Below, piece after piece: positions 12,379-48,708 of a DNA stretch of 64,000 nucleotides. Under the pieces are notes generated by a model that saw only the letters and a program-made list of their open reading frames with translations, searched no databases and was not told the origin of the DNA. The position numbers and the translations under genes are program-made. Location of the stretch: contig JAIPGP010000005.1 of the NCBI GenBank assembly GCA_021735645.1, forward strand, positions 1,908 to 65,907. The letters are read 5' to 3'. This DNA is from Candidatus Cloacimonadota bacterium. Its GTDB lineage: Bacteria; Cloacimonadota; Cloacimonadia; Cloacimonadales; TCS61. Position 1 is the first letter of the stretch; each line of letters opens with the position of its first letter.

Positions 12379-12417
12379 AACTGCTGGATAAATAGAAGAA
12401 TCAGGATGGGATATTTT

Positions 12418-15400
12418 ATGAAGAATTGCGGCTTATTGATTTTGATAACACTGCTGAATATTACATTGTGGGGATTGCAGATTGATATACCTGATAATGC
12501 TCAGAACAAATTAGTGGAATATGAACAAATTGATGAAGGCAATATTCATCTGGAATTTAACCTGGATAAATATGAAAGAGAAGAACTCACCAGAGCTGAG
12601 GTCACCTACACAAAAATAAGCAATCCGGAAGCTGGCAGTTTATTAGATATCGGCATGCCAGACCTGCCGGTTTTCACCCGCCTGGTCGCTATACCTGATG
12701 AGGGGAATCCCCTCTTGACCATAACTTCTTTAAACTCACATACAATAAAAAATATCATGATCTATCCGCAAGAAGAAATCCTGACTGAGACTGAAACCGA
12801 GCGAGATGTTTTCACAATTGATTCCGAATACTATCAGCAGGGAGGTATTTATCCGGCTGCTGCAGCAGTGCTGGGAGAACCGGCAATAATGCGTGATATA
12901 AGACTCGTAAAAGTCACCTTCAATCCCTTCCAGTATAATGCTGCTGCCAGGGAACTGGTAATACACGATAATATCTGCGCGGAACTTACTATCAGCGGCA
13001 GTGGAGGCATAAATGTCAAAACCGGAAACCGCCCACCATCACGTGTCTTTGACAATTTATACGCTTCTTCAGTATTAAATCATGCGGAAACCACAAATCT
13101 GCGAACCGATTTCCAGAGACCGGCTATTTTATTCATTTATCCGCAAAACAACAATGTTGAGAACAATCTGCAATATCTCATGGACTGGAAAAACAAAAAA
13201 GGATTTGATGTTACTTCTGCCAGTACCAGCCAAACCGGTACAACATCTGCCATGATCAAAAACTATATCCAGAACGCTTATGATAACTGGGAAAATCCCC
13301 CTGACTATGTGGTTTTAGTAGGCGACGTGAGCGGGACAATTTTACTTCCTTCCTGGTATGAAAGCTGGAGCGGTACGCAGGGGATTGGTGATCATCCCTA
13401 TGCACAACTGGAAGGTAATGATGTATTGGCAGATATTATCTTAGGCAGAATATCGGTAAATAATATCAATGAATTGCAAACCGTCATCGCCAAATCTATA
13501 AATTATGAAAGAGAACCTTATATGGATAATACCCAGTGGTTTGAAAACGCAATATTATTTGCTTACGGCGGACCGGGTAAAATTGCCACCTGTGAAACAG
13601 TAGAAGGATATATCAGCATTCACAATAACGATTTCTCTTTTACCGAAATTTACTACAGTAACTGGGTATATGCGTTAGACCAGGCCTTAAATACGGGAGC
13701 TAGTTATTTATGCTGGCGGAGTCAAGGAGTGGATTGTGACTGGAATAATAATAATATATATGCCTTGAACAATGGCTGGATGCTGCCTTATGGTGTATTA
13801 TGCACCTGCTTTACTGCTGATATTTATGGAAGCAGTCTCAGTGAAGCTTTTGTGAAAGCGGGAACTTCTACCATCCCAAAAGGCGGAATTGCCGCAGTGG
13901 GCACTTCCACGGGAATGACTTCCGGCTGCTTCAATAATTGCATTACAAATGGTGTCTTTTATGGCATTTTTATCGATAATATCTATACTACCGGCGGAGC
14001 GTTAGTGCGGGGAAAACTGAATCTCTATCAGCAATATCCCAGTAATCCCAGCAATCATGTAAATTGCTGGTCACATTGTAATAATCTCATGGGCGATCCT
14101 TCTATAGAGCTGTGGACAGGTATTCCTCAACCCATGCTCGTGAATATCCCGGATGAGGTGGCTTTCGGGACGAATTTTATGGAAATTAACCTGACTGATG
14201 AGGCTGGTGTTCCTCTGGAAAATGGCTGGGTTACTGCCCGTGGAGATAATGATTATTACCAGACTGGCTATACAGATATGCAGGGTAAATATTATCTGGA
14301 TATCTCAGGCACAGAAATGAACCAGACATTTGAAATCACTATAACCTCACATAATAAAATACCTTATGAAAATGAGATCAACGTTATTCAGGCTGAATAT
14401 CTTCTTGATATTGCTCAGGTAAACTTCCTGGACTCACAGGGCGATGGAATCCCTAACCCCGGCGAAGAAATCACTCTGGAACTCACTATTGCCAATGACG
14501 GCTCCAGCGATCTCACAGGTATTTCTGCAGAACTGGTTTCTCTAAATGATAACGTTTCAGTTGTTATTTCCAATACTGATTTAGGAGACCTTAACAGCGG
14601 AAGTCAATTAGTAAATTCCGATCTTGCAATTTATCTCGACTCGGCAACTCCTGGAGGCAGCAGAGTCCAATTACAGCTCATTCTCACTTCTGATGGAGAA
14701 ATATATGTGATACCGCTCTTTATAGATATTTCCGGTGCTACACTCTATATAGCCAGTTATGTTGCCCAGGATTCTAATGGCATACTTGATCCTGGAGAAT
14801 CTGCTGATATCTATTTCATGATTGAAAATCTGGGTGCTATTGCTGCAACTTCAATTTACGGTGAACTGGCTTGCTTTAACAGCAGGATCTCGATTCAGGA
14901 CAGTACGGGATTTTTTGGAGATATTGCCCCGGGAGGCACTGCCTATAATTTTTCTGATACTTTTGAAATCACTGCCGACAGTAACATTATTCCTGGCACA
15001 CAAATCCCGGTGACTATCACTTTTACGAACCTTAATGGTTATAATGAAACCTGTTCTTATTTAATTGAGATAGGCACTGTAACTGAGGAAGACCCTTTAG
15101 GTCCCGATGAATACGGATATTACTGCTATGATGATGGAGATACTGCTTACGATGAATGCCCCGTTTATGACTGGATAGAAATACACAGCATCGGAGATAA
15201 TCTGGGCTTATATACCCCAGGTGACGAAGCTGATATCGAAGATGTTGAACTGCCGGCTGATTTCTCATTTGTCTTTTATGGCTTAGAATACGATATGATC
15301 ACTGTAGCTTCTGCCGGCTGGATTTGCCCCGGTGGAACAGATGCCGCGGAATTTATGAACTGGACCCTGCCCGGAGCTGGAGGAGCAAGTCCCATGATCG

Positions 15401-17181
15401 CAGCTTTCTGGGATGATATCCACAATGGCTATAATGGAGGTGTATATACTTATTATGACGCTGCCCAGCATTATTTTATCATCGAATGGGATCACATGCA
15501 AAATGAGCATAATAATGAAGAAGAAACATTTCAAATATTGCTCTACGACCCTGATTACTATCCGACTACTACAGGTGACAGCAAAATAAAAATACAGTAC
15601 AAGGCATTTACTAATGCCAATATCGGTGAATATCCCTATCACGGAGCTGATCATGGTCTCTATTGCACTGTAGGACTGGAAGACCATACTGCCACAAGAG
15701 GATTACTTTATACTTATAATAATACCTATCCCACTGCTGCAAAACCGATCACCTCTGAATCTGCCCTGCTGTTCACCGTTTCTCCTGTCCCCCAGGATGG
15801 TCCCTTCCTTAACATTGTAGATTATGAAGCCTATGCCGGAGGTGACTGCTTTATCGAAGCCGGCGAAGAAGCCATGATCTCGATTGTACTGCAAAATTTA
15901 GGGGCTGAATCTGCTAATGACGTGCAGGTTATTCTCTCCGGAGATGATCAGTATATTGATATTCTGAATGATACCGCTAATTGTGACCTTGTTTTGGCAA
16001 ATTCCATGGTAACAATTCCCAATGCTTTTTTAATCAGTGTCAGTGAAAATGTCCCTGATTTCTATTCTTTTTCTCTTAATGTAAATATCAGCAGCAATGA
16101 AGAAGCCTGGAACCAGCTGATCATACTCACCGCTTATGAATTAAACACCTTCACAGTTGATCCGGCGGTTATAAATTACGAAATGATCTGGGGTAATTCT
16201 GACAGCACTTCTTTTGAACTCGCTAATATAGGTGATATTCCCATAAATTTCTATATCCGCACAGATGAAACTTCTACCAGCAGAGATGTTATGGGTTCTT
16301 TCCTGGAATGTGATGCCACAGGTTTTACTCCCGGGCAATCCACTTACTGGACATTTACGGTGCATAATGGCGCAATTGATAATGAATGGATTTCTGATGT
16401 CTGGATAGATTTCCCCTTAGGGGTTACCCTGATTGAAGCCGGAGATTTTGTCGGTGGTTCCGGTGGAAATATGTTCTGGGACGAAACTACTGGTCAAGGT
16501 GCCAATGTCAACTGGCATGGAACTACTGTAAGTGACTGGGGAGTACTGCATTATGGAGAAGTAGCCTCCGCTACAATGTTTGTAAATCTCAGCACCGAAT
16601 TTGCCGGTGATCTCACTATTAATTATTCAATTGGCGGAGACGGCTATGGCAATGAACCTCATGTCATAAATGGCGAGATCATTCTGGAATACCCGCTGCG
16701 CTGGATTAACCTCAATATGTCATCTGGTACAATACCTCCCGGTCAGTCACAGGAAATCTGCGTTGATTTTGACACTGCTGATATTGAAGAAACCGTGCAT
16801 ACCTGCAATATCGTGATCACATCTGATAGCTGGGACACTAAAACCATTCCCGTCACGCTAATTCCTGTCGCCCAGGGTAATGATCCGGAATCAATTCCTG
16901 CCAGTAATATATTGAGCCAGAATTATCCTAATCCCTTCAATCCCCGAACGATTATTCCCTTCAGCATCTGCGAGTCAGCTGCAAATGTGACCCTGAAAAT
17001 ATATAATCTGAAAGGTCAGGCAATCAGAACTCTGCTGAATGCCCCGACAGAACCAGGCAATTTCACCTTGTACTGGGATGGAAAGGATGATAACGGCAAA
17101 GATGTTGCCAGTGGTATATATTTCTCTAATCTCTCAGTAGATGGAGAAAAGCAGACCCGCAAAATGGTGATGATCAAATAG
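12418..17181 (+). CDS. Giant (~1587 aa) peptidase C25-family-like paralogue with T9SS C-terminal sorting domain
   Basis: Colinear with 7536..12302 over its full length and ends in the same RKMVMIK. I prefer the ATG at 12418 (MKNCGLLILI... signal peptide) over the ATG at 12406 used in the ORF track. Confidence 0.85.
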   Translation: MKNCGLLILITLLNITLWGLQIDIPDNAQNKLVEYEQIDEGNIHLEFNLDKYEREELTRAEVTYTKISNPEAGSLLDIGMPDLPVFTRLVAIPDEGNPLLTITSLNSHTIKNIMIYPQEEILTETETERDVFTIDSEYYQQGGIYPAAAAVLGEPAIMRDIRLVKVTFNPFQYNAAARELVIHDNICAELTISGSGGINVKTGNRPPSRVFDNLYASSVLNHAETTNLRTDFQRPAILFIYPQNNNVENNLQYLMDWKNKKGFDVTSASTSQTGTTSAMIKNYIQNAYDNWENPPDYVVLVGDVSGTILLPSWYESWSGTQGIGDHPYAQLEGNDVLADIILGRISVNNINELQTVIAKSINYEREPYMDNTQWFENAILFAYGGPGKIATCETVEGYISIHNNDFSFTEIYYSNWVYALDQALNTGASYLCWRSQGVDCDWNNNNIYALNNGWMLPYGVLCTCFTADIYGSSLSEAFVKAGTSTIPKGGIAAVGTSTGMTSGCFNNCITNGVFYGIFIDNIYTTGGALVRGKLNLYQQYPSNPSNHVNCWSHCNNLMGDPSIELWTGIPQPMLVNIPDEVAFGTNFMEINLTDEAGVPLENGWVTARGDNDYYQTGYTDMQGKYYLDISGTEMNQTFEITITSHNKIPYENEINVIQAEYLLDIAQVNFLDSQGDGIPNPGEEITLELTIANDGSSDLTGISAELVSLNDNVSVVISNTDLGDLNSGSQLVNSDLAIYLDSATPGGSRVQLQLILTSDGEIYVIPLFIDISGATLYIASYVAQDSNGILDPGESADIYFMIENLGAIAATSIYGELACFNSRISIQDSTGFFGDIAPGGTAYNFSDTFEITADSNIIPGTQIPVTITFTNLNGYNETCSYLIEIGTVTEEDPLGPDEYGYYCYDDGDTAYDECPVYDWIEIHSIGDNLGLYTPGDEADIEDVELPADFSFVFYGLEYDMITVASAGWICPGGTDAAEFMNWTLPGAGGASPMIAAFWDDIHNGYNGGVYTYYDAAQHYFIIEWDHMQNEHNNEEETFQILLYDPDYYPTTTGDSKIKIQYKAFTNANIGEYPYHGADHGLYCTVGLEDHTATRGLLYTYNNTYPTAAKPITSESALLFTVSPVPQDGPFLNIVDYEAYAGGDCFIEAGEEAMISIVLQNLGAESANDVQVILSGDDQYIDILNDTANCDLVLANSMVTIPNAFLISVSENVPDFYSFSLNVNISSNEEAWNQLIILTAYELNTFTVDPAVINYEMIWGNSDSTSFELANIGDIPINFYIRTDETSTSRDVMGSFLECDATGFTPGQSTYWTFTVHNGAIDNEWISDVWIDFPLGVTLIEAGDFVGGSGGNMFWDETTGQGANVNWHGTTVSDWGVLHYGEVASATMFVNLSTEFAGDLTINYSIGGDGYGNEPHVINGEIILEYPLRWINLNMSSGTIPPGQSQEICVDFDTADIEETVHTCNIVITSDSWDTKTIPVTLIPVAQGNDPESIPASNILSQNYPNPFNPRTIIPFSICESAANVTLKIYNLKGQAIRTLLNAPTEPGNFTLYWDGKDDNGKDVASGIYFSNLSVDGEKQTRKMVMIK

Positions 17182-33807: not shown

Positions 33808-35472
33808 TTAGATTCTGTTTATGATATCTTGTTCAATAGCAGAGGCTTTCTTTTCAATAGAACTGAGCAGTTTTTCAGAATTATCCATCACATTCTGTTT
33901 AAAAGCTTCATCAGTTATTCCTGCCATATTAATTTTCACATTAAGGAAAGCGCTTTTTGCTGCTGCTGCTGCGGTGATTGCTGCTACACCAGCATCAGAT
34001 AGGGCATTACTATTTCCTATTGCTGCTATTTCTGCGGCAAGTTCCACTGCTTGAAATGCCAGCTCCAGGGTAGCTAAAGGTACCATAATAGCACCCTTGG
34101 TGGCTTCCTGAATTGCCTGATTGCGGACTAATATTTCCGCATCTGTTTTCCGGGACAACTTAATGGCTGCCATCATTTCATTAAAGGCTTCCGTATCCTC
34201 ATCTATGGCAGACATTGCTTTAGCTTTGATGCTTTGACCTTTTTCAGCAATAGGCTTCACTGCCTCCCAATGAGCTTCATAACCCTTTTTGCCAAATGTG
34301 AGATTTGCCACCATACTGCTTAGTGCCCCAGAAATAGAAAGGCATAAAGCCGCCACACTCCCACCCCCAGGAGCCGGGGTATCAGTTGAAAGTTCGTCAG
34401 CAAATTCCATCAGCGTCATATCTGCCAGTTTATTATCTTCTTTTATGGCATACTCTATCACCTTTTTATCAAGTTGAAATTTATAGAGATCGTCCAGACC
34501 CATTGATTGCACAGCAGTAGTTAAAATCATTTTTTCCGGTAAACCGGCACATTCACCTAATCTATTCAGATAATATTTTCCGGCTTCCAGCATGGCTTCT
34601 TTGGGCAGTAAGCCCACTATCTCGCTGCCAGTGATCTGGATACCATTGGCAACTGCCAGTTCCCGCACTTTTTCCAGCACCAGGTGAGGTGGAGTGACCT
34701 TATAATTTGTGAGATTGATAGAAATCTGGGCTCTTTGAAAATCTTCCACATACCAGCCAACCGCTTTACAATTAGAGAATAGTCCTTCTGTCATGACTTT
34801 TTTACCATCTTTATCTTTGATCAGCTTACCATTTTGATCGCGGGTCACGCGTCCTTTTTCCCGAATAGTCAATGCCAGGTCATGAGCTTTTTTCTGATCG
34901 CGGCTATTAAGATTAATATTATAAGCAATCAGGAATTCACGAGCACCTATTGCCAGTGCACCACTTTTAGCGTTAAAGGTGTGAGGTCCAAAATCCGGCT
35001 GCCACTCCGGCTTGCCTACTCTGCCTGCCAGTCCTTCATATTCACCTTTTCTCACCTCTGCCAGGTTCTGCCATTTCGGTTTACTGGCAGCATATTCATA
35101 GAGATATACAGGTATTTGCAGCTCTTCACCTACCCGTTTTCCAAGTTTACGGGCTAATTCCACACATTCTTCCATACTGATATCAGAGACAGGAACAAAG
35201 GGACATACATCAGTAGCACCAAAGCGGGGATGTGCTCCCGTATGTTTACTCATATCAATTAGTTCTGACGCCTTTTTTATGGCGATAAAAGCAGCTTCCA
35301 AAACACTCTCGGGACTGCCAACCATGGTAAATACTGTTCGATTTGTGCTTTCTCCCGGGTCAACATCCAGCAGAGTAACTCCTTTTACTGTGTTTATCAC
35401 TGCTGAAATAGCATCAAGAATACCTTGATCTCTACCTTCCGAGAAATTCGGTACGCATTCAACTAACTTCAT
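33808..35472 (-). CDS. Formimidoyltransferase-cyclodeaminase (bifunctional FTCD-type)
   Basis: MKLVECVPNFSEGRD...THPRFGATDVCPFVP (formiminotransferase) plus a C-terminal helical cyclodeaminase domain (PAPGGGSVAAL). The internal ATG at 35472 gives the canonical N-terminus. Confidence 0.88.
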   Translation of the reverse strand: MKLVECVPNFSEGRDQGILDAISAVINTVKGVTLLDVDPGESTNRTVFTMVGSPESVLEAAFIAIKKASELIDMSKHTGAHPRFGATDVCPFVPVSDISMEECVELARKLGKRVGEELQIPVYLYEYAASKPKWQNLAEVRKGEYEGLAGRVGKPEWQPDFGPHTFNAKSGALAIGAREFLIAYNINLNSRDQKKAHDLALTIREKGRVTRDQNGKLIKDKDGKKVMTEGLFSNCKAVGWYVEDFQRAQISINLTNYKVTPPHLVLEKVRELAVANGIQITGSEIVGLLPKEAMLEAGKYYLNRLGECAGLPEKMILTTAVQSMGLDDLYKFQLDKKVIEYAIKEDNKLADMTLMEFADELSTDTPAPGGGSVAALCLSISGALSSMVANLTFGKKGYEAHWEAVKPIAEKGQSIKAKAMSAIDEDTEAFNEMMAAIKLSRKTDAEILVRNQAIQEATKGAIMVPLATLELAFQAVELAAEIAAIGNSNALSDAGVAAITAAAAAKSAFLNVKINMAGITDEAFKQNVMDNSEKLLSSIEKKASAIEQDIINRI

Positions 35473-36712
35473 TATTTCCTCCAGATTTAGCTTTATTATA
35501 TAATTCTTTTCCCTGTATCCAGGTACTCTCAATTTTTATTTCCTGGTTAAGATAGATCAGCAGCGATAATATATCTTCGCTATCAACTGCTGTTTTGAAA
35601 AACTCATCATGCTGCAAAAATACCAGATCCGCTTCTTTACCCGCTTCCAATGAGCCTATTTTGCTTTCCAGCCCCAGTAAAACGGCATTGCCCAGAGTTC
35701 CATGGTAAAACGCCTTTGCCGGAGTAAATGTTGATTTGTCCAGAATATAATCGGCAAATTTCATCATTTTCAGCATACTGAGGTCCGTTCCGGCACCCAC
35801 ATCGCTTCCCAGCCCTACTCTGATACCGCTTTCCTCTATTTCGTTCCACTTAAAGCGGCCGCTCTTGAGAAAAAAATTGGAATCAGGACAAAAGGCAATA
35901 CCGGTATCTGTGGCCCGCAAACATTCTATTTCCTGCCTGGCAAGATGGATTCCATGCCCCATTATACTACGGTTTCCCAGTAAACCATATTTTTCATATA
36001 ATGCAGTATAACTGCTGTTGCCGGGAAATAAATCTAATACCTGCTCTATCTCAAAAGTATTCTCTGATAAATGCGACTGTAAACGGGCAGTCAAAGATTT
36101 TACCAGATTACCTGTTTCCTCTAAAAGCTCGGCACTGCAGGTAATGGCAAAACGCGGTGAGAATATATAATCCAAAAGTCCTTTATCATGCCACTTATCC
36201 CAAAGCTCACAGCTTGCCCGAATTGATGCAGCCGTCTCCTGCTTTAAATAGTCAGGACAGTTTCTATCCATCATGGTCATTCCGATAATACTGCGGACTC
36301 CTGCTGCTTCCGCCACTTTAAAAGCGGTTTCACAGGCTGCAGGATAAGGTGACGTGTAAACCACGCTGGTAGTTGTTCCTTTTGCCAGGGATTGCTGATA
36401 AAAATCCTGCGCTATCTGCTCACTGAATTTGGCATCCCGGGACATTCCTTCTGCCGGAAATGTATGTTTGTGCAGCCATTGCATCAAATCCGGAGCATAT
36501 TTCCCCCGAATATAAAGTTGTGATAGATGAACATGAGAATCGATCAGCCCAGGAATACACAGACAATCAGTTTTATCCAGACATTCAACTTGTGGTGCTG
36601 TTTCACTGACAGCAAATATCTTACCGGCTGAAATCGTTATATAACACTTCGGAATATAGATTATATCACCATTGGCAATAGGAGTTAAAATATTGGTAGC
36701 TATACAGTTCAT
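35459..36712 (-). CDS. Amidohydrolase, guanine-deaminase-like
   Basis: PGLIDSHVHLSQ...LMQWL..HTFPAE, LQSHLSEN, GHGIHL, CPDSN, GLGSDVGAGT. Confidence 0.7.
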   Translation of the reverse strand: MNCIATNILTPIANGDIIYIPKCYITISAGKIFAVSETAPQVECLDKTDCLCIPGLIDSHVHLSQLYIRGKYAPDLMQWLHKHTFPAEGMSRDAKFSEQIAQDFYQQSLAKGTTTSVVYTSPYPAACETAFKVAEAAGVRSIIGMTMMDRNCPDYLKQETAASIRASCELWDKWHDKGLLDYIFSPRFAITCSAELLEETGNLVKSLTARLQSHLSENTFEIEQVLDLFPGNSSYTALYEKYGLLGNRSIMGHGIHLARQEIECLRATDTGIAFCPDSNFFLKSGRFKWNEIEESGIRVGLGSDVGAGTDLSMLKMMKFADYILDKSTFTPAKAFYHGTLGNAVLLGLESKIGSLEAGKEADLVFLQHDEFFKTAVDSEDILSLLIYLNQEIKIESTWIQGKELYNKAKSGGNNEVS

Positions 36713-38061: not shown

Positions 38062-39129
38062 TTACCCATTTACCTGTTCATTCCGGTGTGCTATTTTTAA
38101 TGCCTCTATAAATTCTTCTATCTCGCCGGTCAATATCGTACTTAGTTTATATGATGTCAAATTTATTCTGTGATCAGTCACTCTCGACTGCGGAAAATTA
38201 TAAGTCCGTATCTTGGCACTGCGGTCACCAGTGCCTACCTGAGTTCGCCGGTCTGCTGCTATTTCCGACTCATGTTTAAGTATCTCCTGATCCAAAAGAC
38301 GTGAACGCAATACCTTCATTGCTTTGTTCTTATTCTTTAATTGTGATTTCTCATCCTGGCAGGTAACTACAATGCCTGAGGGCAGATGTGTGATCCGCAC
38401 AGCAGAATCCGTAGTATTCACACTTTGACCACCATGACCTGATGATCTATATACATCTATCTTCAAATCTCTTTCATTTATCTCAAGATCTACTTCATCT
38501 GCTTCCGGCAATACCGCCACAGATATTGCCGAGGTATGTACTCTGCCCTGGGATTCTGTTACTGGTATGCGCTGCACCCGGTGTACTCCACTTTCCCAAC
38601 GCATAGTGCCATACACCCCGTCTCCGCTCAAGGAAAATATTATCTCCTTAAATCCTCCTACTCCTGTGGGATTTGAGGACAGCACGGTCTGTTTCCAACC
38701 CTGTTTCTCGCCAAAATAACTGTACATACGGTAGAGGTCTGCACAGAATAATGCTGCCTCATCACCTCCGGTTCCTGCCCGAATCTCCACAATTGCATCT
38801 TTGAAATCATTTGGATCCTTAGGAATCATTAATTCTCTCAGCTCTTCCTGCACACTTTCCAGTTTACCCCGCAACTCTTCATTTTCTTCCTCAGCCATTT
38901 CATGAAGTTCTTTTTCTTCTTCTTTATTCAATATTTCCTGATTTTCTTTTATTGTCTGCTGCAATCTGAGATATTCATCCACTATCTGTAAAATGTTCTG
39001 CAACTCTTTATAACGCCTCGATATCTGGGTATAAAGACGCTTGTCAGTCATTTTAACCGGATCATAAACATCTTTCTCCAGAACTTGCATCTCCTGACGC
39101 AGTTTCTCTATTTTCTCTACTGGAATCAT
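38062..39129 (-). CDS. prfA: Peptide chain release factor 1
   Basis: GGQ motif ([23 protein letters not shown]) and the RF1-type PVT tripeptide ([14 protein letters not shown]). Confidence 0.93.
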
Positions 39130-40109
39130 TTCTTGTTTCCCTTAAAATCTAAATAAATAACTTCCCGATCTACTTCCAGATCCAGGGCACTCTGCATTGC
39201 CGTTAAGGCTATTTCTATCTGATCATTGCTCGGTGGCTGGGTGGTTATTCGCTGTAATGCCATACCCGGGGCTGTCATCAGCTTCACCAGCGGATGGTCG
39301 ATCTTTTTGCCTGAAAGCTTCAGTACTTCATAAGATATTCCCGATACGAAAGGTATCAGTAATAAATGATAACCCAGCCGGAATATTATGGGTGGTATAC
39401 TACCCAGAATATGACCCACTATCGTATCTATCAGCGAAAATACGAGAATAGAGATCAAAAGCACAAAAAACATGAAACTGGTTCCGCAGCGGGGATGCAG
39501 TGTGCTGTGATACTGGATATGGGCAGGGTCAAGCTCTGTGCCTTTCTCATAAGCATAAACTGTCTTATGCTCAGCTCCATGATATTCAAAAAGACGGTGA
39601 ACGTCTTTCATCCGGCTGATCACCCAGACATAAACTACAAAAAAGATGATCCTGATCCCCCCAGCAAATAAATTGAACCACAGATTCTCTTTACCCAAAC
39701 CTAACCAGTCAGCTATCTGATACGGCAAAAATCCAAAAAGTACAAATGCCAGTCCAAAGGCTATCACATACATCAAAAAGCTTTCACGCTTTTCTGCTGC
39801 TGCACTCTTTTCCTTGATCGTCTTACCTTTGGCTTCTTCATCTGCTTTCCAGTCCAGACTGGCACGCTCTTCCGAAAAACTCAAACTGCTGAACCCGATG
39901 CCCATCATCTCGATCAGGGACACGAATCCCCGCACGATTGGCAAACCCAGAAATTTATTCGCTTTTGTCTTGCTGATAAATTCTTTTTTCCAGATTTCTA
40001 TCTCACCGTTCGCTCGCCGTACCGCTGTAGAAATATGAGAAGGACCTCGCATCATCACACCTTCGATTACTGCTTGTCCGCCTACCTGTATAGCTTTCTT
40101 GTCTCCCAA
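39126..40109 (-). CDS. DUF1385 (YqhQ-like) membrane protein
   Basis: [16 protein letters not shown]-terminus and conserved HGAEHK. It occupies the common position between rpmE and prfA, with a 4-nt overlap with prfA. Confidence 0.8.
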
Positions 40110-40435: not shown

Positions 40436-40583
40436 TGAGAACTCCTTTCTCGCTATATTCTTATCCAAATAACACTTTTTTTATCTTGCTCTCTTAATGT
40501 CAACTATTTTCCCAATAAATCTGATTTTGACAGATCATGACAGTTCAATTTTCTTAATATTCTCACTGCTCTACCATCAAAGG

Positions 40584-40628
40584 GTCTTATAGGTCTTATA
40601 GGGCTTATAGGGCTTATAGGGCTTATAG
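40584..40628. repeat. Five tandem 9-bp units (GKCTTATAG)
   Basis: GGTCTTATAG GTCTTATAG GGCTTATAG GGCTTATAG GGCTTATAG. Confidence 0.9.
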
Positions 40629-40775
40629 ATAATCAAAATAACGTCATTTAATCTGTAAAGAAGATTTTCGGCGAAGTGATTGAGGTAAATTCTGGCATCC
40701 CCCTGTTTTTTTTAGCAATTCATTATCTAATTGTCTGATATTATTGAGATTAAACACAATAATTTATATCTATCT

Positions 40776-40992
40776 AACCATTCTCATTAACACCAGATTT
40801 CAATCTGGTGCCCCTGATTAGAAGAAGTTCGCTAGTGGTTTCAACCACTTCATAAAATAGTGAATGCTCCAATTTGTCAACAATTATAATATTCCATAAT
40901 CACATATATTTATATAAGAAGTCACTGAAGTGACTACACTTCGTTCGTATATTTATACCACCAACTAAAGTTGGTGGTTAATGAGAATGGTT
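40776..40992. repeat. 217-bp element bounded by a perfect 16-bp inverted repeat and containing four hairpins (MITE-like element or structured RNA candidate)
   Basis: AACCATTCTCATTAAC (40776-40791) matches GTTAATGAGAATGGTT (40977-40992). Internal hairpins: CACCAGAT-ttca-ATCTGGTG (40791-40810), AGTGGTT-tc-AACCACT (40834-40849), AGTCAC-tgaa-GTGACT (40920-40935) and ACCACCAAC-taaa-GTTGGTGGT (40957-40978). Confidence 0.7.
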
Positions 40993-41057
40993 TTCAGATT
41001 AAATTAGAGATTACATATCGATGATAAATTTCGGGGGGATACCAGATTAAGCTAAAT

Positions 41058-44000
41058 TTGATTGACATGAAAATGAGTAAGGTTAAAAGACGAAATAAGG
41101 AAGGAAATGAAATGTTAAAAGATATAAATGAAAAATCAACAGCTTTGGAAAGTAATTTACGGGAGACAAACCGGGGCAGCAAAATTATTCCGGAAAAATA
41201 TCAGTGGCTGTTGTCTCAGTCAATTGGTAAAAAGGGTATAAATGAGCGTTGTAAGACTCTATTAGATGAGTATAATCATCCTTTTTCTAACCATAAAGTA
41301 GCAACAGAAGATCTGGTGCAGGTTGCTTTAAGTGATTTATGGTATTATGATCAGCTGCCTGAACGCCGGAGGATATATGAGTTGATATTAGGAATATTTT
41401 CTGATTTATTGCAGCGTTATATAGAAGTAGATATTCAAGACCGTCTGATTCAGACCCTGATTCGGTTTATTAGTAAGCTTGCTGAGCAGGATAACTATGA
41501 TCTGGTATCAATCCAGTCAGGTCTGGAGCTGATAAAAAACATCTATCGCAGTGATTCTATACTACTGGAGCGTAACAGCACTTATATCAAGAATAATTTC
41601 AAGGTTGTATATGAGATTCCGGAAATGAGAGAGGTTTGTCTGGATTATTGCCGTAAGTTATTAAGCGGAGTTTATTCACGCTGGCATGATTTACCGCAAT
41701 TAGAGGAATGGTATAAGGAAAAACAAGCACTTTTTGGAGAAGATTATCAGTCATTGATCCATGAGACGGGCAGGGAATTTATCGAATCTGAGCGAAAACG
41801 TCTGATGTCCATCAAGAATTGGGACGATGTCAGAGGAATGTCATTTTATGGTGATCTGGCTCAGAAATACCGGAGCCTGATTAGCCGCTTTGCGACCAGT
41901 CAGGAAAAGATTTATTATATTCTCTATTTATTTAAACTGGATGACATGTATCAGATGAGAAAGAGTTTATTGCTGGACTTGAACCGAACAATGCGTCGAG
42001 TGGGTGAAGAAATAGAATTAGAAGAGATGCAGAAATTTATGCAGGAAATATTTGGCTTGTTTGCAGAGCTAAAGGATAATTACCGCGAGACGGTTCTGGA
42101 CAGCATTTTATCATTGGGCAAGACGATAATAAGCTATGGCAATAAAGATTTACGACATTTATTCATAGATTTAGTGATCGGGCTGGGATTTGTCTCGCCA
42201 CGTGATGTAAAGATAGATAACGAGTGGCAGGTAGTGATAGACAGCAATCACATCAAGAATATCAGGGTATGGCTGCAGCTTGTGGAGCTGGACCCGATCG
42301 GGATGAACCGCTTGCTAAGTGCGCTTATTATAAATTTACGCGTAGGCGGTATATTTGTCTCTGATACGGATTTATTCCAAAAAGATATATCAAGGTTTCT
42401 GAGAGGAAATATTCAGCCTATCTTTAAACAAGTAAAGCAATTAGCCAGATTATTCCCTATTTATTATAATAAAATTGGGGCAGAAGGCGAATTACGGGAA
42501 TTGACAACAGCTATTGATGAGATGGGTCGCAGGCAGGACCGGCTGCTGCATTTTTTCCGCAAACAGGTTCACACTGAGAGCAATAATACTAACGTGGATC
42601 TGGCAAGGGATATACTGGAATACTGGGAGGGTGGTTATAGTGCGAAGGCGAAAACAACTCTACCAGATGATGTAAGAAAATTTATGAATACTGAAAATGA
42701 ATTTTATATTTTTAATCATCAGCTGGTGAAATTGTTGTGCGGGGAATATAAGTGCACGGTAATGGGTCTGGCAGAGCTGGATAGAAAAATCCTGGAGCGG
42801 TCCATAGATGAGAAACAGGAAATACCGGAGGTATACCGCCGGAAAGTGATGTATTTGATTCGGATTTATAATATTCTGCAGGAAAAGTATAGTTTTGGGA
42901 TAACAGATTTGGATAGTACCTTGCGGAAAAGCGGATTATGCGAAGAAAAGGATATCAAGTTATTGCTGGAATCATGGAAAGGTAAAAAATGGGCAGAGGC
43001 ATTGGAGAGTTTATTTGCGATCATGAAGAAGCTTGTGAAAGTAATATTTTCTTCAGAGCCTACAGAGGTGCGGGAAGACATCTATTATAAGCGTCATGTT
43101 GCTGCAGGGATACCTTCGATGTATGGCGAATACCGAGAGGCAAGGTTTGATGCCTTGGGCTTGATTTTCCGGCTGGAACAATTGGGTAAAGTGCTTTTGG
43201 AGAAAATTGAGAACAGAATAGACCTGATCTATTTCACCCATAAAACTCTGGAGCGGATTTATAGATTATTAAGGTTATATGAGACCGGATTGGAGATGGA
43301 TGGCATCAGTAATCCGGGATTCAGTTCCAATCTTGAGATGTTTCGCTATAGTCTGGAATCCAGCTTCACTTTGGATCAGTACCAGAACATTTTTCAGTTT
43401 CTGGCAGAGAATGCAAAGGAAATAGTGAAGGAATATTTTTACCGGATATATGAGCAGCCTTTGATGAAGATCACTGTGCAATATTTAGCAGAAGGCGGGA
43501 TAGAAGAGCGAATGCAGCAATCAGACCGCCTGTCGGAAAAATTTTACCGGGATGTTTTAACCTCGGCTTTTATTATCCAGAAGCTGGATAATTTTATCAT
43601 GACGCTCTTGAAATCTAACCGTGATATTGTCCAAAAATATGAAAAACAACACTTGATTATGCTCTTAAATTATGAGCCAGACCAGATAATGAGTCCGCTT
43701 TATTTATCTACTCCCGAGGTGGACAATCCGATATTTCTGGGTTCAAAGGCATATTTCTTGAAAGTAATGCTGGAAAAGGGATTTCCCATTCCACCAGGAT
43801 TTGTGCTTTCTACAGAGCTGTTCCGGCACCGTCCACTGGTTCTGCTTGAGGGTGCCTTTCGCACAGATATCTTGAATAAGATACGTAAGCAGGTGAAAAG
43901 ATTGCAGAGCCTGGCAGGCAGAAAGTTTGGTGACCCGGCAAATCCGATGTTACTAAGTGTGCGTTCCGGTACAGCGATTTCGATGCCGGGAGCGATGAAT

Positions 44001-45212
44001 ACTTTTTTAAATGTGGGAATGAATGATGAAATTGCTGAAGAGATGAGTAAGCAGAAAGGTATGGGCTGGACTGCCTGGGATTCTTACCGGCGTTTATTGC
44101 AGAGCTGGGGAATGGCGCAAAAAATTGAGCGGGATAAATTTGATGAGATCATTCAGGGTTATAAAACGGAGTTTGGGATTGCGATGAAGCAGAACCTGAG
44201 CACTGAGCAGATGAAACGGATTGCCCTGGCATATAAGAAAAAGATTCTGGATTGCGGAAAAGAATTTATCGATGATCCTTTTGAGCAGCTGTTTAAGGCT
44301 ATTGGATATGTGCTGGACAGCTGGGGCTCAGATCGCGCTTTGGTATATCGGGAGCAAATGCAGATAGCACATGAATGGGGAACTGCTGTTGTAGTTCAAC
44401 AAATGGTGATGGGTAATATGAGCGAGAATTCGGGGACTGGTGTCCTTTTTACCCATGACCCGGCAAGTAATGAACCAGGCTTAAAGCTCTATGGTGAATA
44501 CACTGTGTGCAGTCAGGGAGAAGATGTAGTTGCCGGACTGGTGAATGTGAAACCCTTAACCCGCCAGCAAGGTAAAGTCTTAAGCGATAATGGCAATGAC
44601 AGCCTGGAAGCAAAACTGCCGCTGATTTTTAATCGCTTAAATGAACTGGCAGCAAAAATGATCTATGACCATGGTTTCAGCCACCAGGAAATAGAATTTA
44701 CTTTTGAGTCTGAGAATCCGGAAGATTTATATATCCTGCAGACCCGGAATCAGGACATTCAAACTAAGCGGGACTTCAAGATATTTTCTGCCAAGCGGGA
44801 AGAAATGGTATTTGCCGGTAGCGGCATAGGCATAGGTGGCGGAGCATTGAACGGGATTTTAGCCTTTAATGAAGATGATTTGCATACTTACCGTCAGCAG
44901 TATCCGGATATGGCAATGATCTTAGTCCGCCCCGATACGGTTCCAGATGATATCGGCATGATCTTTAAATGTGATGGCTTGATCACGGGTAGAGGTGGAG
45001 CAACCTCTCATGCAGCTGTAACAGCAGTGAGGCTGGGTATAGTGTGTATAGTAAATTGCCGGCAACTGGTTGTTGATGAAGAGAAAAAATGTTGTCAAAT
45101 CCTTGATAAAAAACTGTTTAGCGGAGATAAAGTGGCGATTGATGGTCATTTTGGGAATATCTATATCGGTAATTATGATGTGCAAACGGAAAGGATGTCT
45201 TATCAGGGATAG
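41058..45212 (+). CDS. 1384-aa protein: ~870-aa unrecognised N-terminal region fused to a PPDK-type ATP-grasp nucleotide-binding domain and swivel phosphohistidine domain; no PEP/pyruvate TIM barrel
   Basis: The C-terminal ~510 aa are colinear with PPDK: FGDPANPMLLSVRSGTAISMPGAMNTFLNVGMND, YRRLLQSWG, GTAVVVQQMVMGN, SGTGVLFTHDP, QGEDVVAGL, QEIEFTFE..LYILQTRN, ILVRPDTVPDDIGMI, GLITGRGGATSHAAVTAVRLG. The start is uncertain: TTG at 41058, or ATG at 41112, which follows AGGAAGGA. Confidence 0.8.
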   Translation: MIDMKMSKVKRRNKEGNEMLKDINEKSTALESNLRETNRGSKIIPEKYQWLLSQSIGKKGINERCKTLLDEYNHPFSNHKVATEDLVQVALSDLWYYDQLPERRRIYELILGIFSDLLQRYIEVDIQDRLIQTLIRFISKLAEQDNYDLVSIQSGLELIKNIYRSDSILLERNSTYIKNNFKVVYEIPEMREVCLDYCRKLLSGVYSRWHDLPQLEEWYKEKQALFGEDYQSLIHETGREFIESERKRLMSIKNWDDVRGMSFYGDLAQKYRSLISRFATSQEKIYYILYLFKLDDMYQMRKSLLLDLNRTMRRVGEEIELEEMQKFMQEIFGLFAELKDNYRETVLDSILSLGKTIISYGNKDLRHLFIDLVIGLGFVSPRDVKIDNEWQVVIDSNHIKNIRVWLQLVELDPIGMNRLLSALIINLRVGGIFVSDTDLFQKDISRFLRGNIQPIFKQVKQLARLFPIYYNKIGAEGELRELTTAIDEMGRRQDRLLHFFRKQVHTESNNTNVDLARDILEYWEGGYSAKAKTTLPDDVRKFMNTENEFYIFNHQLVKLLCGEYKCTVMGLAELDRKILERSIDEKQEIPEVYRRKVMYLIRIYNILQEKYSFGITDLDSTLRKSGLCEEKDIKLLLESWKGKKWAEALESLFAIMKKLVKVIFSSEPTEVREDIYYKRHVAAGIPSMYGEYREARFDALGLIFRLEQLGKVLLEKIENRIDLIYFTHKTLERIYRLLRLYETGLEMDGISNPGFSSNLEMFRYSLESSFTLDQYQNIFQFLAENAKEIVKEYFYRIYEQPLMKITVQYLAEGGIEERMQQSDRLSEKFYRDVLTSAFIIQKLDNFIMTLLKSNRDIVQKYEKQHLIMLLNYEPDQIMSPLYLSTPEVDNPIFLGSKAYFLKVMLEKGFPIPPGFVLSTELFRHRPLVLLEGAFRTDILNKIRKQVKRLQSLAGRKFGDPANPMLLSVRSGTAISMPGAMNTFLNVGMNDEIAEEMSKQKGMGWTAWDSYRRLLQSWGMAQKIERDKFDEIIQGYKTEFGIAMKQNLSTEQMKRIALAYKKKILDCGKEFIDDPFEQLFKAIGYVLDSWGSDRALVYREQMQIAHEWGTAVVVQQMVMGNMSENSGTGVLFTHDPASNEPGLKLYGEYTVCSQGEDVVAGLVNVKPLTRQQGKVLSDNGNDSLEAKLPLIFNRLNELAAKMIYDHGFSHQEIEFTFESENPEDLYILQTRNQDIQTKRDFKIFSAKREEMVFAGSGIGIGGGALNGILAFNEDDLHTYRQQYPDMAMILVRPDTVPDDIGMIFKCDGLITGRGGATSHAAVTAVRLGIVCIVNCRQLVVDEEKKCCQILDKKLFSGDKVAIDGHFGNIYIGNYDVQTERMSYQG

Positions 45213-45287
45213 AATATTCATTGACAGAAAAAGTATGGTATTATAATTAATAGGTAATAAAAATCGAATACATTAAGGAGAATTCTA

Positions 45288-46520
45288 ATGGGAAATATCT
45301 TAGGTATCAATGGTTTAGGTAGAATAGGTAAACTTACCCTCTGGAATCATATTGCCTTAGACCATTTTGATGGATATGTGATCAATGTGGGCAGAGAAAT
45401 AGGTAATAGCCTGGATGATTTTATCAGGACAATAGAATCCGATTCCACTTATGGTCACATAGACCGTTTTTTATATGGTGCATCAGGTAAAAAAGCTCAG
45501 ATCGAAATTATCAATGAAAAACAGGGACTACTGAAAATCAATGGCAAAAAAGTCTGGGTGCTGCGTAAAGAACGTAATCCATTGAATTTGCCCTGGAATG
45601 AGATGGGCGTCCGATTAGTAGTGGATTGCACGGGAGTGTTTCTTGACCCTACCGTGCCAGTGGATAATCCCAGGGGCAGCGTGCGGGGGCATCTGGAAGC
45701 CGGAGCGGAAAAAGTATTATGTTCGGCTCCTTTCAAGATCAAAGACAAAGCTCTCAGCATGCCGGAAGATAGTAAACTATTTGTCTATGGTGTCAATCAT
45801 CATGATTATAACCCCAGCCAGCATAATATTCTTTCAGCAGCCAGTTGCACAACTACCGGGCTGGCTCACATGATGATGCCGCTGCTGGAAAATGAGGCAG
45901 CATCTAAAATAGTGACAGCTTCCATGTCCACAATTCATGCCTCCACCAGTACGCAAAGCATCCTGGACAGCGTTCCTAAAGCCGGAGCAAAAGACTTGAG
46001 AAAAAACCGCTCTATTATGAATAATATAATTCTTACTTCTACCGGAGCAGCTAAGGCTCTGGAACAGATACTGCCACAAATCAAAGATATCGGGTTCATG
46101 GCAGACAGCGTTCGCATACCTACTAATACAGTATCAATGATCAGCTTGAATATCACTTTCCATGAGCAAATGAATGAAAAATTAGAGCCTGTGATCAATG
46201 GTGAATTTCTGAATAATATCTACCGCGCTGCTGAAAAAAATAAACAAAAAGGACTGCTGGTCTTCAGCGAAAGACAAAATGTTTCCAGCGATCTGATCGG
46301 GATACGGGCAGCAGTAGTGATTGAGGGTAACGATACTCATACCAGGACGGGATTCTTGAAGCTGAATAGTGTCATGCTGCAAGAACTGGGACTTAATGCC
46401 AAAGACAATATCTCACTGCCGGTTACCCATGCCAAAATTTTTGGCTGGTATGATAATGAGTTTGGCAGCTATGTGAATATGCTGGGTAAATTAACCTTGC
46501 ATGTTGATGAAAACTTATAG
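45288..46520 (+). CDS. Divergent, long (410 aa) glyceraldehyde-3-phosphate dehydrogenase family protein
   Basis: INGLGRIGK (NAD fold), SAASCTTTGLAHMM (catalytic Cys), STIHASTSTQ (His), NIILTSTGAAKAL, RIPTNTVSM, WYDNEFGSY. It is about 75 aa longer than classical GapA. Confidence 0.75.
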   Translation: MGNILGINGLGRIGKLTLWNHIALDHFDGYVINVGREIGNSLDDFIRTIESDSTYGHIDRFLYGASGKKAQIEIINEKQGLLKINGKKVWVLRKERNPLNLPWNEMGVRLVVDCTGVFLDPTVPVDNPRGSVRGHLEAGAEKVLCSAPFKIKDKALSMPEDSKLFVYGVNHHDYNPSQHNILSAASCTTTGLAHMMMPLLENEAASKIVTASMSTIHASTSTQSILDSVPKAGAKDLRKNRSIMNNIILTSTGAAKALEQILPQIKDIGFMADSVRIPTNTVSMISLNITFHEQMNEKLEPVINGEFLNNIYRAAEKNKQKGLLVFSERQNVSSDLIGIRAAVVIEGNDTHTRTGFLKLNSVMLQELGLNAKDNISLPVTHAKIFGWYDNEFGSYVNMLGKLTLHVDENL

Positions 46521-46725
46521 CAGAATGTAGCGTAATGCAGTTAAATGTATTATATGGGAGGTAGATAAAAAAGCGGAGATAAAAAAAATTGACAGATCGG
46601 GAAGTGAGAAATTACTGACCCTAAAGTTAATAAAGGATTTTATATGGTGTTTAATTCCGCAGATAAGACGGGAATAATGATGAAGGTAGAGAGCACGATA
46701 ATTGCTCTTGAAAGCATAAATCATA

Positions 46726-46760
46726 AAGCATTCACTCTCAAGGTGGATGCTTTTTTTGTT
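46726..46760 (+). terminator. Hairpin plus T-run immediately upstream of nadC (terminator of the upstream unit, or an attenuator)
   Basis: AAGCATTCAC / GTGGATGCTT (one G-T pair) followed by TTTTTTTGTTTT. It ends 12 nt before the nadC ATG. Confidence 0.5.
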
Positions 46761-46771
46761 TTGGGGCTTGT

Positions 46772-48316: not shown

Positions 48317-48708
48317 CTGTCGGAGAGGATCATATATCTGCTGTCCCGCTTGCGGGAGAGAGGAAAGTCCGAACACCAAAGGGCAGGATACTTCTTAACT
48401 GGAAGTCCTTGTGAAGGGGAGCTAGCTCCACAGAAACAAACCGCCGAAAGGTAAGGGTGAAATGGCAGAGTAAGAGCCTGCCAGATTCTGACGTGAGTCA
48501 GAATGCTCGGAAAGCCTTATCCGGTGCAATGCCAAATAGGGAAGCAGTCTTCGGACCCGGATTTGCCCGATCCGGTTTGCTTTCGGGTAGGCAGCTTAAG
48601 CCGGCTTAAATGTCCCGGTTGGGAATAGCAATATTCGGCTTAGAGAAATAGATGTATGATCACTTGTTAGGTGATTAACAGAATTCGGCTTATGACCGTC
48701 TCCGACAG
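48317..48708 (+). ncRNA. rnpB: RNase P RNA, bacterial type A
   Basis: P1 pairing of CTGTCGGAGA (48317-48326) with TCTCCGACAG (48699-48708). Conserved blocks: AGGAAAGTCCGAAC (48361-48374), ACAGAAACAAACCGCC, GGTAAGGGTGAAA, and ACAGAATTCGGCTTA (48678-48692). Confidence 0.92.

Follow-up and report, generated by a model that had tools for sequence, protein, structure and literature searches.

Organization of the locus

The DNA analyzed here, a stretch of 64,000 nucleotides from a Candidatus Cloacimonadota bacterium (assembly GCA_021735645.1, contig JAIPGP010000005.1, positions 1,908 to 65,907 of the forward strand; this whole stretch is called the window below), carried a large gene related to pyruvate phosphate dikinase (PPDK), followed on the same strand by a gene for a long form of glyceraldehyde-3-phosphate dehydrogenase (GAPDH). 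The parts of this locus were located as follows, in window coordinates.

41058-45212, plus strand: open frame of the large gene from TTG, 1384 amino acids (aa)
41112..45212, plus strand: large dikinase-like gene, 1366 aa from ATG 41112 (list of open reading frames, translation and deposited form)
41112..43721, plus strand: family-specific all-alpha domain, residues 1-870 (AlphaFold2 model; no Pfam match)
42159..43241, plus strand: most conserved core of that domain, residues 350-710, candidate phospho-acceptor site (alignments and conservation profile)
43734..44756, plus strand: PPDK-type ATP-grasp nucleotide-binding domain, about residues 875-1215 (PF01326, TIGR01828, alignment to the PPDK of the same genome)
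44817..45191, plus strand: swivel phosphohistidine domain, about residues 1236-1360 (PF00391)
45009-45011, plus strand: codon of the catalytic His1300, inside GGATSHAAV
45213..45287, plus strand: intergenic region of 75 nt, without a terminator-like hairpin in the terminator scan and with the ribosome-binding site TAAGGAG ahead of ATG 45288
45288..46520, plus strand: long-form type I GAPDH paralogue, 410 aa (PF00044, PF02800, alignments and tree)
45846-45848 and 45936-45938, plus strand: codons of the catalytic pair of the long GAPDH, Cys187 and His217
46725..46763, plus strand: terminator-like hairpin with a 12-bp stem and a T-run, 3' of the GAPDH paralogue and before nadC (scan and sequence)

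The initial annotation described the large gene as a frame of 1384 aa, with the GAPDH-family frame 75 nt downstream on the same strand. The coordinates of both frames were correct, but the true start of the large gene is most likely ATG 41112, because the deposited copy of the protein was 1366 aa long (100% identical) and the start of the same-genus orthologue aligned with this ATG, preceded by AAGGAAGGA. All residue numbers of the large protein refer to the 1366-aa form. Since no terminator was found between the two genes and a strong one followed the pair, the two genes are probably co-transcribed as a bicistronic unit, of which the hairpin at 46725..46763 is the probable end. A perfect TTGACA (45221-45226) and TATAAT (45242-45247) also lay in the gap, separated by a short spacer of 15 nt. 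This pair may act as a weak internal promoter of the GAPDH paralogue; it was not listed by the promoter scan, which needs a spacer of 16-18 nt. The sequence of the locus turned up in three listed DNA runs, all of one lake-water metagenome study; no RNA run was listed.

The C-terminal dikinase module of the large protein

A Pfam search placed PF01326 at residues 936-1166 (E 1e-30) and PF00391 at residues 1287-1364 (E 5e-16), and no match to PF02896, the PEP/pyruvate-binding TIM barrel of PPDK, was found in the large protein. In a BLASTP alignment, residues 875-1363 were 33% identical to residues 23-552 of the PPDK from the same genome. The GxK, EIEFT, LQTR and GGATSHAAV motifs were kept in this alignment, and the inter-domain linker was about 45 residues shorter than in the PPDK. 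The large protein stopped at PPDK position ~552, the start of the linker to the TIM barrel. These results agreed with the initial annotation, which had proposed colinear ATP-grasp and swivel domains at the C-terminus and a frame that ends where the barrel would start; the domain pattern it had predicted (PF01326 and PF00391 in the C-terminal part, no PF02896, nothing in residues 1-870) was obtained in full.

All 165 family members kept the catalytic histidine, and 162 of them the threonine before it. It is shown, or nearly so, that the C-terminal ~490 residues make up a catalytically intact, PPDK-derived histidine-swivel dikinase module. The curated PPDK model TIGR01828 gave the large protein 366 bits against a cut-off of 843, covering the ATP-grasp and histidine part only. 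The phosphoenolpyruvate (PEP) synthase models of NCBIfam gave 70-84 bits, and the Enzyme I model TIGR01417 gave 13.7 bits. The matches to the RPH, RedH and PigC models were weak and confined to the ATP-grasp domain; NF041857, for rifampin phosphotransferase / PRK06241-type dikinases, gave 31.8 bits (cut-off 999). The score of 366 bits with TIGR01828, compared with 70-84 bits for the PEP-synthase models, suggests that the large protein is a dikinase of the phosphate/pyrophosphate (Pi/PPi) type, which would carry out the half-reaction ATP + Pi ⇌ AMP + PPi as PPDK does.

Two cysteines of the swivel domain were family-specific: Cys1287 was found in 124/165 and Cys1328 in 133/165 members (residues 1287-1328, window 44970-45095), where 42 ordinary PPDKs carried Ala/Ser and Phe/Leu, respectively. 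Both adjoined two cysteines that are common to PPDK, and a redox or metal site in this region is possible.

The N-terminal helical domain

The initial annotation recognized nothing in the mostly helical N-terminal ~870 residues and pointed to structure prediction and fold searching, which were carried out here. The AlphaFold2 model (69-sequence alignment; pLDDT 83.6, pTM 0.73) consisted of about 45 helices with a single β-hairpin at residues 654-675, and the core of residues 350-710 folded alone gave a pLDDT of 82.4. No characterized family was matched by residues 1-870 with Pfam, NCBIfam, PDB sequence profiles, Foldseek, VIA-align or Atlas. There was no Pfam match even at E 0.1, nothing below E 0.5 in the PDB sequence-profile search, and no usable match in the Atlas feature search. 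Foldseek against the PDB with the whole model returned only solenoids of the karyopherin, SF3b and CAND1 type at TM-scores of 0.1-0.19. The exhaustive VIA search peaked at Z 10.7 on designed helical repeats, under the helical noise level of the tool, and the Atlas structure search gave only the domain's own family and TPR/HEAT clusters. For the core alone, the best VIA Z was 6.5 and Foldseek found nothing below E 0.5. No fold could be assigned, since the solenoid and helical-bundle matches were generic, with TM-scores of 0.1-0.19 and Z-scores under the noise level.

Alignments of the core showed motifs kept across phyla: DTDLFQ, EIGAEGxLR, F(L/F)RKQxHTESNN and YYKRHxAxGIPSMYGxYxE. Residues D418, R462, D469, R483, K484, H487, K592, Y593, K660, R661, H662, S669, Y674, E676, R813 and D826 were invariant even in a distant clade of the family. 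The helical domain is thus conserved in the manner of an enzyme, with polar and basic motifs in clusters. The proteins of the distant clade, 1457-1480 aa long, were built from the same three domains, with about 100 additional residues at the N-terminus. Two of its loci were inspected; a sulfatase and a glycosyltransferase surrounded the gene in one, and a flavodoxin and a cytochrome P460 in the other.

An exhaustive profile search of 1.84 billion representative sequences found 686 relatives of the helical domain. All full-length relatives tested among them had the helical domain, then the ATP-grasp domain, then the swivel domain, and among the 686 representatives the helical domain occurred with no other catalytic module. 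Two matches with the N-terminal domain only, of 851 and 861 aa, were genes cut by contig ends; split forms of the large gene were rejected because the shorter relatives checked sat at contig ends. The helical domain is known, therefore, solely as the third domain of this dikinase family. We infer that it is the acceptor-binding domain, standing in place of the PEP/pyruvate barrel.

The long GAPDH paralogue

The 410-aa protein matched PF00044 and PF02800 and kept both the NAD fold and the Cys/His pair, as first described. The catalytic residues Cys187 (in SCTT) and His217, the counterparts of Cys149 and His176, were invariant in 58 family members. Alignment with Trypanosoma cruzi GAPDH (PDB 1k3t) and canonical GAPDHs was used to place the phosphate-site residues. 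The counterparts of Thr179, Arg195, Thr208/Gly209 and Arg231 were all present and were invariant in the alignment of the 58 members. The substrate-binding region, which had been called divergent in the initial annotation, was thus conserved at every phosphate-site residue. The Asp32 determinant of NAD binding was lost. Here the canonical "IND" was replaced by "N-x-G-R-E", of which Asn33, Gly35 and Arg36 were invariant. In Rossmann folds, the loss of the Asp at the NAD-ribose site together with an Arg after strand β2 goes with the use of NADP(H), which hints that the long GAPDH may use NADP(H).

The protein was longer than GapA, as noted at the outset, by about 75-85 aa. This extra length was spread over about six insertions, one of them of ~30 aa near the C-terminus, and the identity to canonical enzymes was about 30-35%. 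The type I model TIGR01534 scored the long GAPDH at 313 bits against a cut-off of 367 and other long forms at 287-299 bits, whereas the canonical neighbors described below and the GapA of the same genome reached 425-439 bits. Epd models gave 115-118 bits. An identity as erythrose-4-phosphate dehydrogenase was rejected, with TIGR01532 at 117.7 bits against a cut-off of 530. In a maximum-likelihood tree, 25 long forms were split from 10 canonical GAPDHs with 100/100 support on a branch of about 3 substitutions per site. The long GAPDHs branch deeply as a clade of their own within type I GAPDH; the phylogenetic placement called for earlier did not put it with ordinary GapA. Compared with homologues from Clostridia, the long GAPDH was 63-67% identical and the dikinase about 40%, so the GAPDH family is the more conserved of the two.

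Conservation of the gene pair

More than 1,000 full-length relatives of the large protein were found; clustering at 90% identity gave more than 1,000 groups, and at 50% about 690. The features of this gene are therefore far beyond chance. The architecture of 1350-1430 aa was kept in hundreds of clusters, with a mean column identity of 55-62%. The family occurred in about ten phyla overall, with the two genes side by side in nearly all full-length relatives. Its carriers included Clostridia, Bacteroidales, Cloacimonadota, Geobacter/Syntrophaceae/Desulfobacteraceae and Chloroflexota as well as Actinomycetota, Acidobacteriota, Nitrospirota and Sumerlaeota.

A scan with one genome per species yielded 38 loci whose similarity extended well past the PPDK-like part, some few of them cut by contig ends, and 42 ordinary PPDK loci from the same scan served as controls. 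The 38 loci came from Clostridia, Oscillospiraceae, Geobacter, Syntrophaceae/Smithella, Desulfobacteraceae, Myxococcales, Bacteroidales, Lentimicrobiaceae, Cloacimonadota, Sumerlaeota, Acidobacteriota, Thermodesulfovibrionales, Thermoleophilia, Gaiellales and Acidimicrobiia. In 22 of them the next gene downstream, on the same strand, coded for a long GAPDH (47-64% identity), mostly after a gap of less than 160 bp; in 4 more such a gene lay nearby on the opposite strand, and none was found in the 42 control loci. Pairwise identities of the two proteins correlated with r = 0.85 over 22 loci. The window's own phylum was sampled with 121 genomes, of which 52 carried the dikinase core and 53 the long GAPDH. 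Both genes were present in 51 and neither in 67, and in the three genomes with a single gene this gene lay beside a contig end.

In the annotated contexts compared, those of a Petroclostridium genome, a second complete genome and contigs of Geobacteraceae, the surroundings of the pair were wholly different. Clustering of open reading frames over 39 loci revealed no third conserved gene family around the pair. The neighboring genes of NAD metabolism, nadC here and nadE with nudC in Geobacteraceae, were not recurrent, and a role in anti-phage defence was rejected with no PADLOC match for either protein at E 0.01. Taken together, these observations show, or very nearly show, that the pair is an autonomous, conserved metabolic cassette in which the GAPDH is the obligatory genomic partner. 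The two-gene module first suspected in the window is borne out by neighborhoods across many anaerobic phyla and by a near-perfect co-occurrence within the phylum.

Cloacimonadota held two distinct lineages of the cassette. The window copy grouped with copies from Clostridia and Sumerlaeota; its dikinase was 44-45% identical to the Clostridia dikinases of this group and 36-37% identical to those of the other Cloacimonadota. Because the window copy was closer to the former than to the latter, horizontal transfer of the whole cassette is suggested by these comparisons.

Eight loci from Bacteroidales/Lentimicrobiaceae had no long GAPDH as a neighbor. Instead, five of the eight had a GAPDH of 335-355 aa that was transcribed divergently from the large gene and lay 75-130 bp upstream of it; in the other three it lay 1-5 kb upstream. 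These neighbors were bona fide type I GAPDHs with 431-437 bits, above the TIGR01534 cut-off. In the four such genomes checked no long GAPDH was found anywhere, and each had two canonical-length GAPDH copies; in the one genome with matchable positions (locus L038), one of the two copies was the dikinase neighbor. At one further Bacteroidales locus a canonical GAPDH, the dikinase and a long GAPDH stood in a row. An ordinary GAPDH can thus take the place of the partner, which argues that the intermediate shared by the two proteins belongs to the normal GAPDH reaction. Comparison of the large proteins partnered with canonical and with long GAPDHs revealed only five conservative switches without clustering, and group-specific interface residues in the large protein were rejected on this ground. 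With two GAPDH types as partner and no switch residues, a shared metabolite is an easier explanation of the pairing than a shared interface.

Glycolytic and dikinase genes elsewhere in the genome

The genome held a canonical gapA (contig C76, 438 bits), a full-length PPDK of 908 aa (1340 bits) and a gene for phosphoglycerate kinase (PGK), and PF02896 was found in two other genes only. The canonical gapA and ppdK for which the initial annotation had asked were both found. With gapA, PGK and PPDK all encoded elsewhere, the pair comes on top of standard lower glycolysis. Three further dikinase-like proteins with a PPDK_N domain were encoded in the genome, two of 1058 and 579 aa as near neighbors (C9:27543-34360) and one of 980 aa (C31:26356-30462), and none had an NCBIfam match below 1e-20.

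Proposed reaction and alternative explanations

We tentatively propose that the large protein works as a dikinase of the histidine-swivel type, converting 3-phosphoglycerate (3-PG) and 1,3-bisphosphoglycerate (1,3-BPG) into each other and so feeding or draining its dedicated GAPDH, a proposal with a real chance of being correct that still falls short of an even one. 3-PG is the candidate acceptor because the partner is an obligatory phosphorylating GAPDH. In this scheme, the ATP-grasp domain would load His1300 from ATP and Pi with release of AMP and PPi, as in PPDK, and the swivel domain would carry the phosphoryl group over to the helical domain, into a basic pocket made up of R462, R483-K484, H487, K592, K660-R661-H662 and R813. 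A carboxylate would be phosphorylated to an acyl phosphate in this pocket, the most economical acceptor being 3-PG, which would give 1,3-BPG. The partner GAPDH would then reduce 1,3-BPG to glyceraldehyde-3-phosphate (GAP), perhaps with NADPH, and the reverse direction would also be possible. The net reaction, 3-PG + ATP + Pi ⇌ 1,3-BPG + AMP + PPi, would be a dikinase bypass of PGK. The free energy estimated from textbook hydrolysis energies was about +4 kJ/mol for the dikinase reaction versus about +19 kJ/mol for PGK. Being near equilibrium, the reaction could therefore run gluconeogenically, pulled by the removal of PPi, or glycolytically, forming ATP from AMP and PPi. Full-text searches of the literature returned no report on the family or on a phosphoglycerate dikinase. 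The frame offered by the initial annotation, a dikinase with a non-pyruvate acceptor beside an acyl-phosphate/aldehyde oxidoreductase, is still the best one for the putative function. The bolder form of the proposal, in which the cassette is a "3-phosphoglycerate, phosphate dikinase" (1,3-BPG + AMP + PPi ⇌ 3-PG + ATP + Pi) with its own GAPDH, the reaction is an unrecognized one of central metabolism and the acceptor domain is a new catalytic fold, is in our judgment improbable.

Several observations weigh against the interconversion of 3-PG and 1,3-BPG. PGK was found in 121/121 of the phylum genomes searched, so nothing needs replacing, and a replacement of PGK by the cassette was rejected for this reason. 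The cassette is accessory, with the dikinase in only 52 of these genomes, and the two distant-clade loci had the same architecture without a GAPDH neighbor. A search of longer proteins containing the long GAPDH found no fused dikinase-GAPDH protein, which is weak evidence. The hint of NADP(H) use draws on the general Rossmann-fold rule, and the Bacteroidales partner keeps Asp32. In the predicted model, an 870-aa helical solenoid also looks unusual as a small-molecule site and more like a protein-binding scaffold. A complex prediction for the N-terminal core (residues 340-870) with the long GAPDH scored 0.00 and was used neither way.

The last structural point leads to a different explanation, in which the solenoid is a docking platform and the phosphohistidine phosphorylates or regulates the GAPDH paralogue or another protein, as Enzyme I of the phosphotransferase system does with HPr, so that the function would be regulatory or moonlighting. 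The only structural neighbors of the N-terminal domain were indeed protein-binding solenoids of the HEAT/ARM/TPR type, the size of the domain is far beyond what a small-molecule site would suggest, and the GAPDH partner is strictly co-inherited. However, these fold matches were generic (TM 0.1-0.2, Z under the helical noise level), and the conserved residues clustered in polar and basic motifs of the kind that mark a catalytic or ligand-binding site. The C-terminal half was closest to PPDK proper and not to Enzyme I (TIGR01417, 13.7 bits), and two structurally different GAPDH types served as partner without switch residues in the large protein. We regard this explanation as unlikely.

A change of substrate, rather than of function, is doubtful as well, but it deserves more weight than protein phosphorylation. 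The dikinase would act on another anionic acceptor, for example a different phospho-sugar acid like 4-phosphoerythronate, or on a hydroxyl or enol group, and the long GAPDH on the matching aldehyde or acyl phosphate other than GAP, in an undescribed side pathway. The score of the long GAPDH below the type I cut-off (313 vs 367 bits), its very long branch and its roughly six insertions would fit such a change, as would the full standard set of GAPDH and PGK already present in the genome. The related enzymes RPH, HpeHI and PpsAB show that acceptor domains are readily swapped (PMC12167813). On the other hand, all residues for the C3 phosphate and the inorganic or acyl phosphate were kept in the GAPDH, and the Epd models gave only 115-118 bits. 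The Bacteroidales partner was an ordinary type I GAPDH scoring like housekeeping GapA, which favors GAP and 1,3-BPG. Finally, the public labels "pyruvate phosphate dikinase" and "type I glyceraldehyde-3-phosphate dehydrogenase" on relatives might suggest a mis-annotated or decayed PPDK lying by chance beside an ordinary glycolytic GAPDH. This is refuted, with practically no probability left to it, by the missing TIM barrel and a score of 366 bits against a cut-off of 843, by the intact architecture of 1350-1430 aa in hundreds of clusters (55-62% mean column identity), and by the genuine PPDK and GapA elsewhere in the genome together with an adjacency of 0/42 at ordinary PPDK loci.

Other features of the window

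The gene pair was preceded by a spacer with short repeats, and further features were found elsewhere in the window.

40469..41111, no strand assigned: upstream spacer from rpmE (L31) to the dikinase gene, ~640 bp, with five tandem 9-mers and short hairpins
39513-39590, plus strand: tRNA-Glu(CTC) called by ARAGORN
48322-48707, plus strand: bacterial RNase P RNA class A (234 bits), flanked by a CT398-like zinc-ribbon gene and recJ
7536-12302 and 12406-17181, plus strand: two tandem giant open reading frames of 1588 and 1591 aa
33808-36712, minus strand: formiminotransferase-cyclodeaminase gene adjoining an amidohydrolase gene

The spacer contained five tandem copies of the 9-mer GGKCTTATA at 40583-40628 and four short perfect hairpins at 40802-40990, and its fold z-score was -3.0. 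No Rfam match was found for it, and no counterpart was present upstream of the orthologues in same-genus and same-family genomes. The repeat-rich spacer, which the initial annotation had given as 590 bp and attached to the module, does exist, but it was rejected as part of the conserved unit because it is local to this genome and not conserved even within the genus. The tRNA-Glu(CTC) call is probably spurious. It lay inside the minus-strand DUF1385 frame at 39126-40109 (Pfam E 8e-77), and the Rfam scan at gathering thresholds showed no tRNA at 39513-39590. The genes at 33808-36712 look like a pair for histidine/formiminoglutamate catabolism.

Possible implications for central carbon metabolism

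The pair is widespread, mis-annotated and apparently uncharacterized, and it may represent an unrecognized step of central carbon metabolism. Databases label the large protein "pyruvate phosphate dikinase" or "PEP/pyruvate-binding protein", yet the known PEP/pyruvate-binding domain is absent. Metabolic models built on such annotations credit the carriers with a PPDK and an extra glycolytic GAPDH, whereas the two proteins are probably neither the one nor the other. That the gene is so strictly paired with a dedicated phosphorylating GAPDH directs attention to the node of GAP, 1,3-BPG and 3-PG, which is to our knowledge the sole part of glycolysis without a known dikinase or PPi-linked variant. 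If the proposed reaction is true, it would, when run glycolytically, serve as the PPi-dependent equivalent of PGK and as a third PPi-linked step beside PPi-dependent phosphofructokinase and PPDK. With PGK and adenylate kinase working in the opposite sense, a cycle would result whose net reaction is ATP + Pi -> ADP + PPi. For PPi-dependent glycolysis, the source of PPi is still unidentified, and a stoichiometry of ATP + Pi -> ADP + PPi has been postulated (PMC8863071). That the cassette is this source is speculation. Whatever the substrate, the family would bring a new acceptor domain to the histidine-swivel dikinases, a class that attracts interest in connection with antibiotic resistance, aromatic catabolism and biocatalysis.

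Comparison with known systems

The large protein resembles PPDK (EC 2.7.9.1; TIGR01828) in its contiguous ATP-grasp and swivel domains, which have the same order and 33% identity, and in the GGxTSHAAV loop and the motifs of the ATP site. It differs in the absence of the PF02896 barrel, in the N-terminal helical domain of 870 aa and in a linker about 45 residues shorter. Judged by its sequence the large protein is not a PPDK, because both the barrel and the curated score fail. The dikinases with swapped acceptors, namely rifampin phosphotransferase (RPH), HpeHI/CreHI/phenylphosphate synthase, PigC/RedH and glucan water dikinase, likewise combine an ATP-grasp domain and a swivel histidine with a non-pyruvate acceptor domain. 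In RPH and RedH, however, the acceptor domain separates the ATP-grasp domain from the swivel domain, whereas it is N-terminal in the large protein. No solved structure, the RIF-binding domain included, matched the fold of the helical domain, and the sequence affinity of the large protein lies with PPDK instead of the PEP-synthase/RPH branch. With a different domain order and different scores, the large protein is therefore not of the RPH or PEP-synthase type. Work on HpeHI/CreHI and PpsAB has stressed that this class recruits different acceptor domains (PMC12167813), and the present family adds to the histidine-swivel dikinases an acceptor domain without a fold match and a fixed dehydrogenase partner.

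The long GAPDH shares with type I GAPDH (GapA/GapB; TIGR01534) both Pfam domains, the catalytic Cys/His pair, the residues of the Ps and Pi sites and the C-terminal WYDNE. It is distinguished by its length, by the replacement of Asp32 followed by an invariant Gly-Arg, by its separate clade and sub-cut-off score, and by its tie to the dikinase gene. As a pair, the two proteins would be comparable with PGK/GAPDH, aspartokinase/ASD, ProB/ProA and ArgB/ArgC, in which a carboxylate is converted to an acyl phosphate that is reduced with NAD(P)H in a Cys-dependent reaction. The activating enzyme would here be an AMP- and PPi-forming phosphohistidine dikinase, not an ADP-forming kinase, and no instance of such a dikinase paired with an acyl-phosphate reductase was found in the literature searched. 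The proposed dikinase would thus stand to PGK in the same relationship as PPDK or PEP synthase stands to pyruvate kinase.

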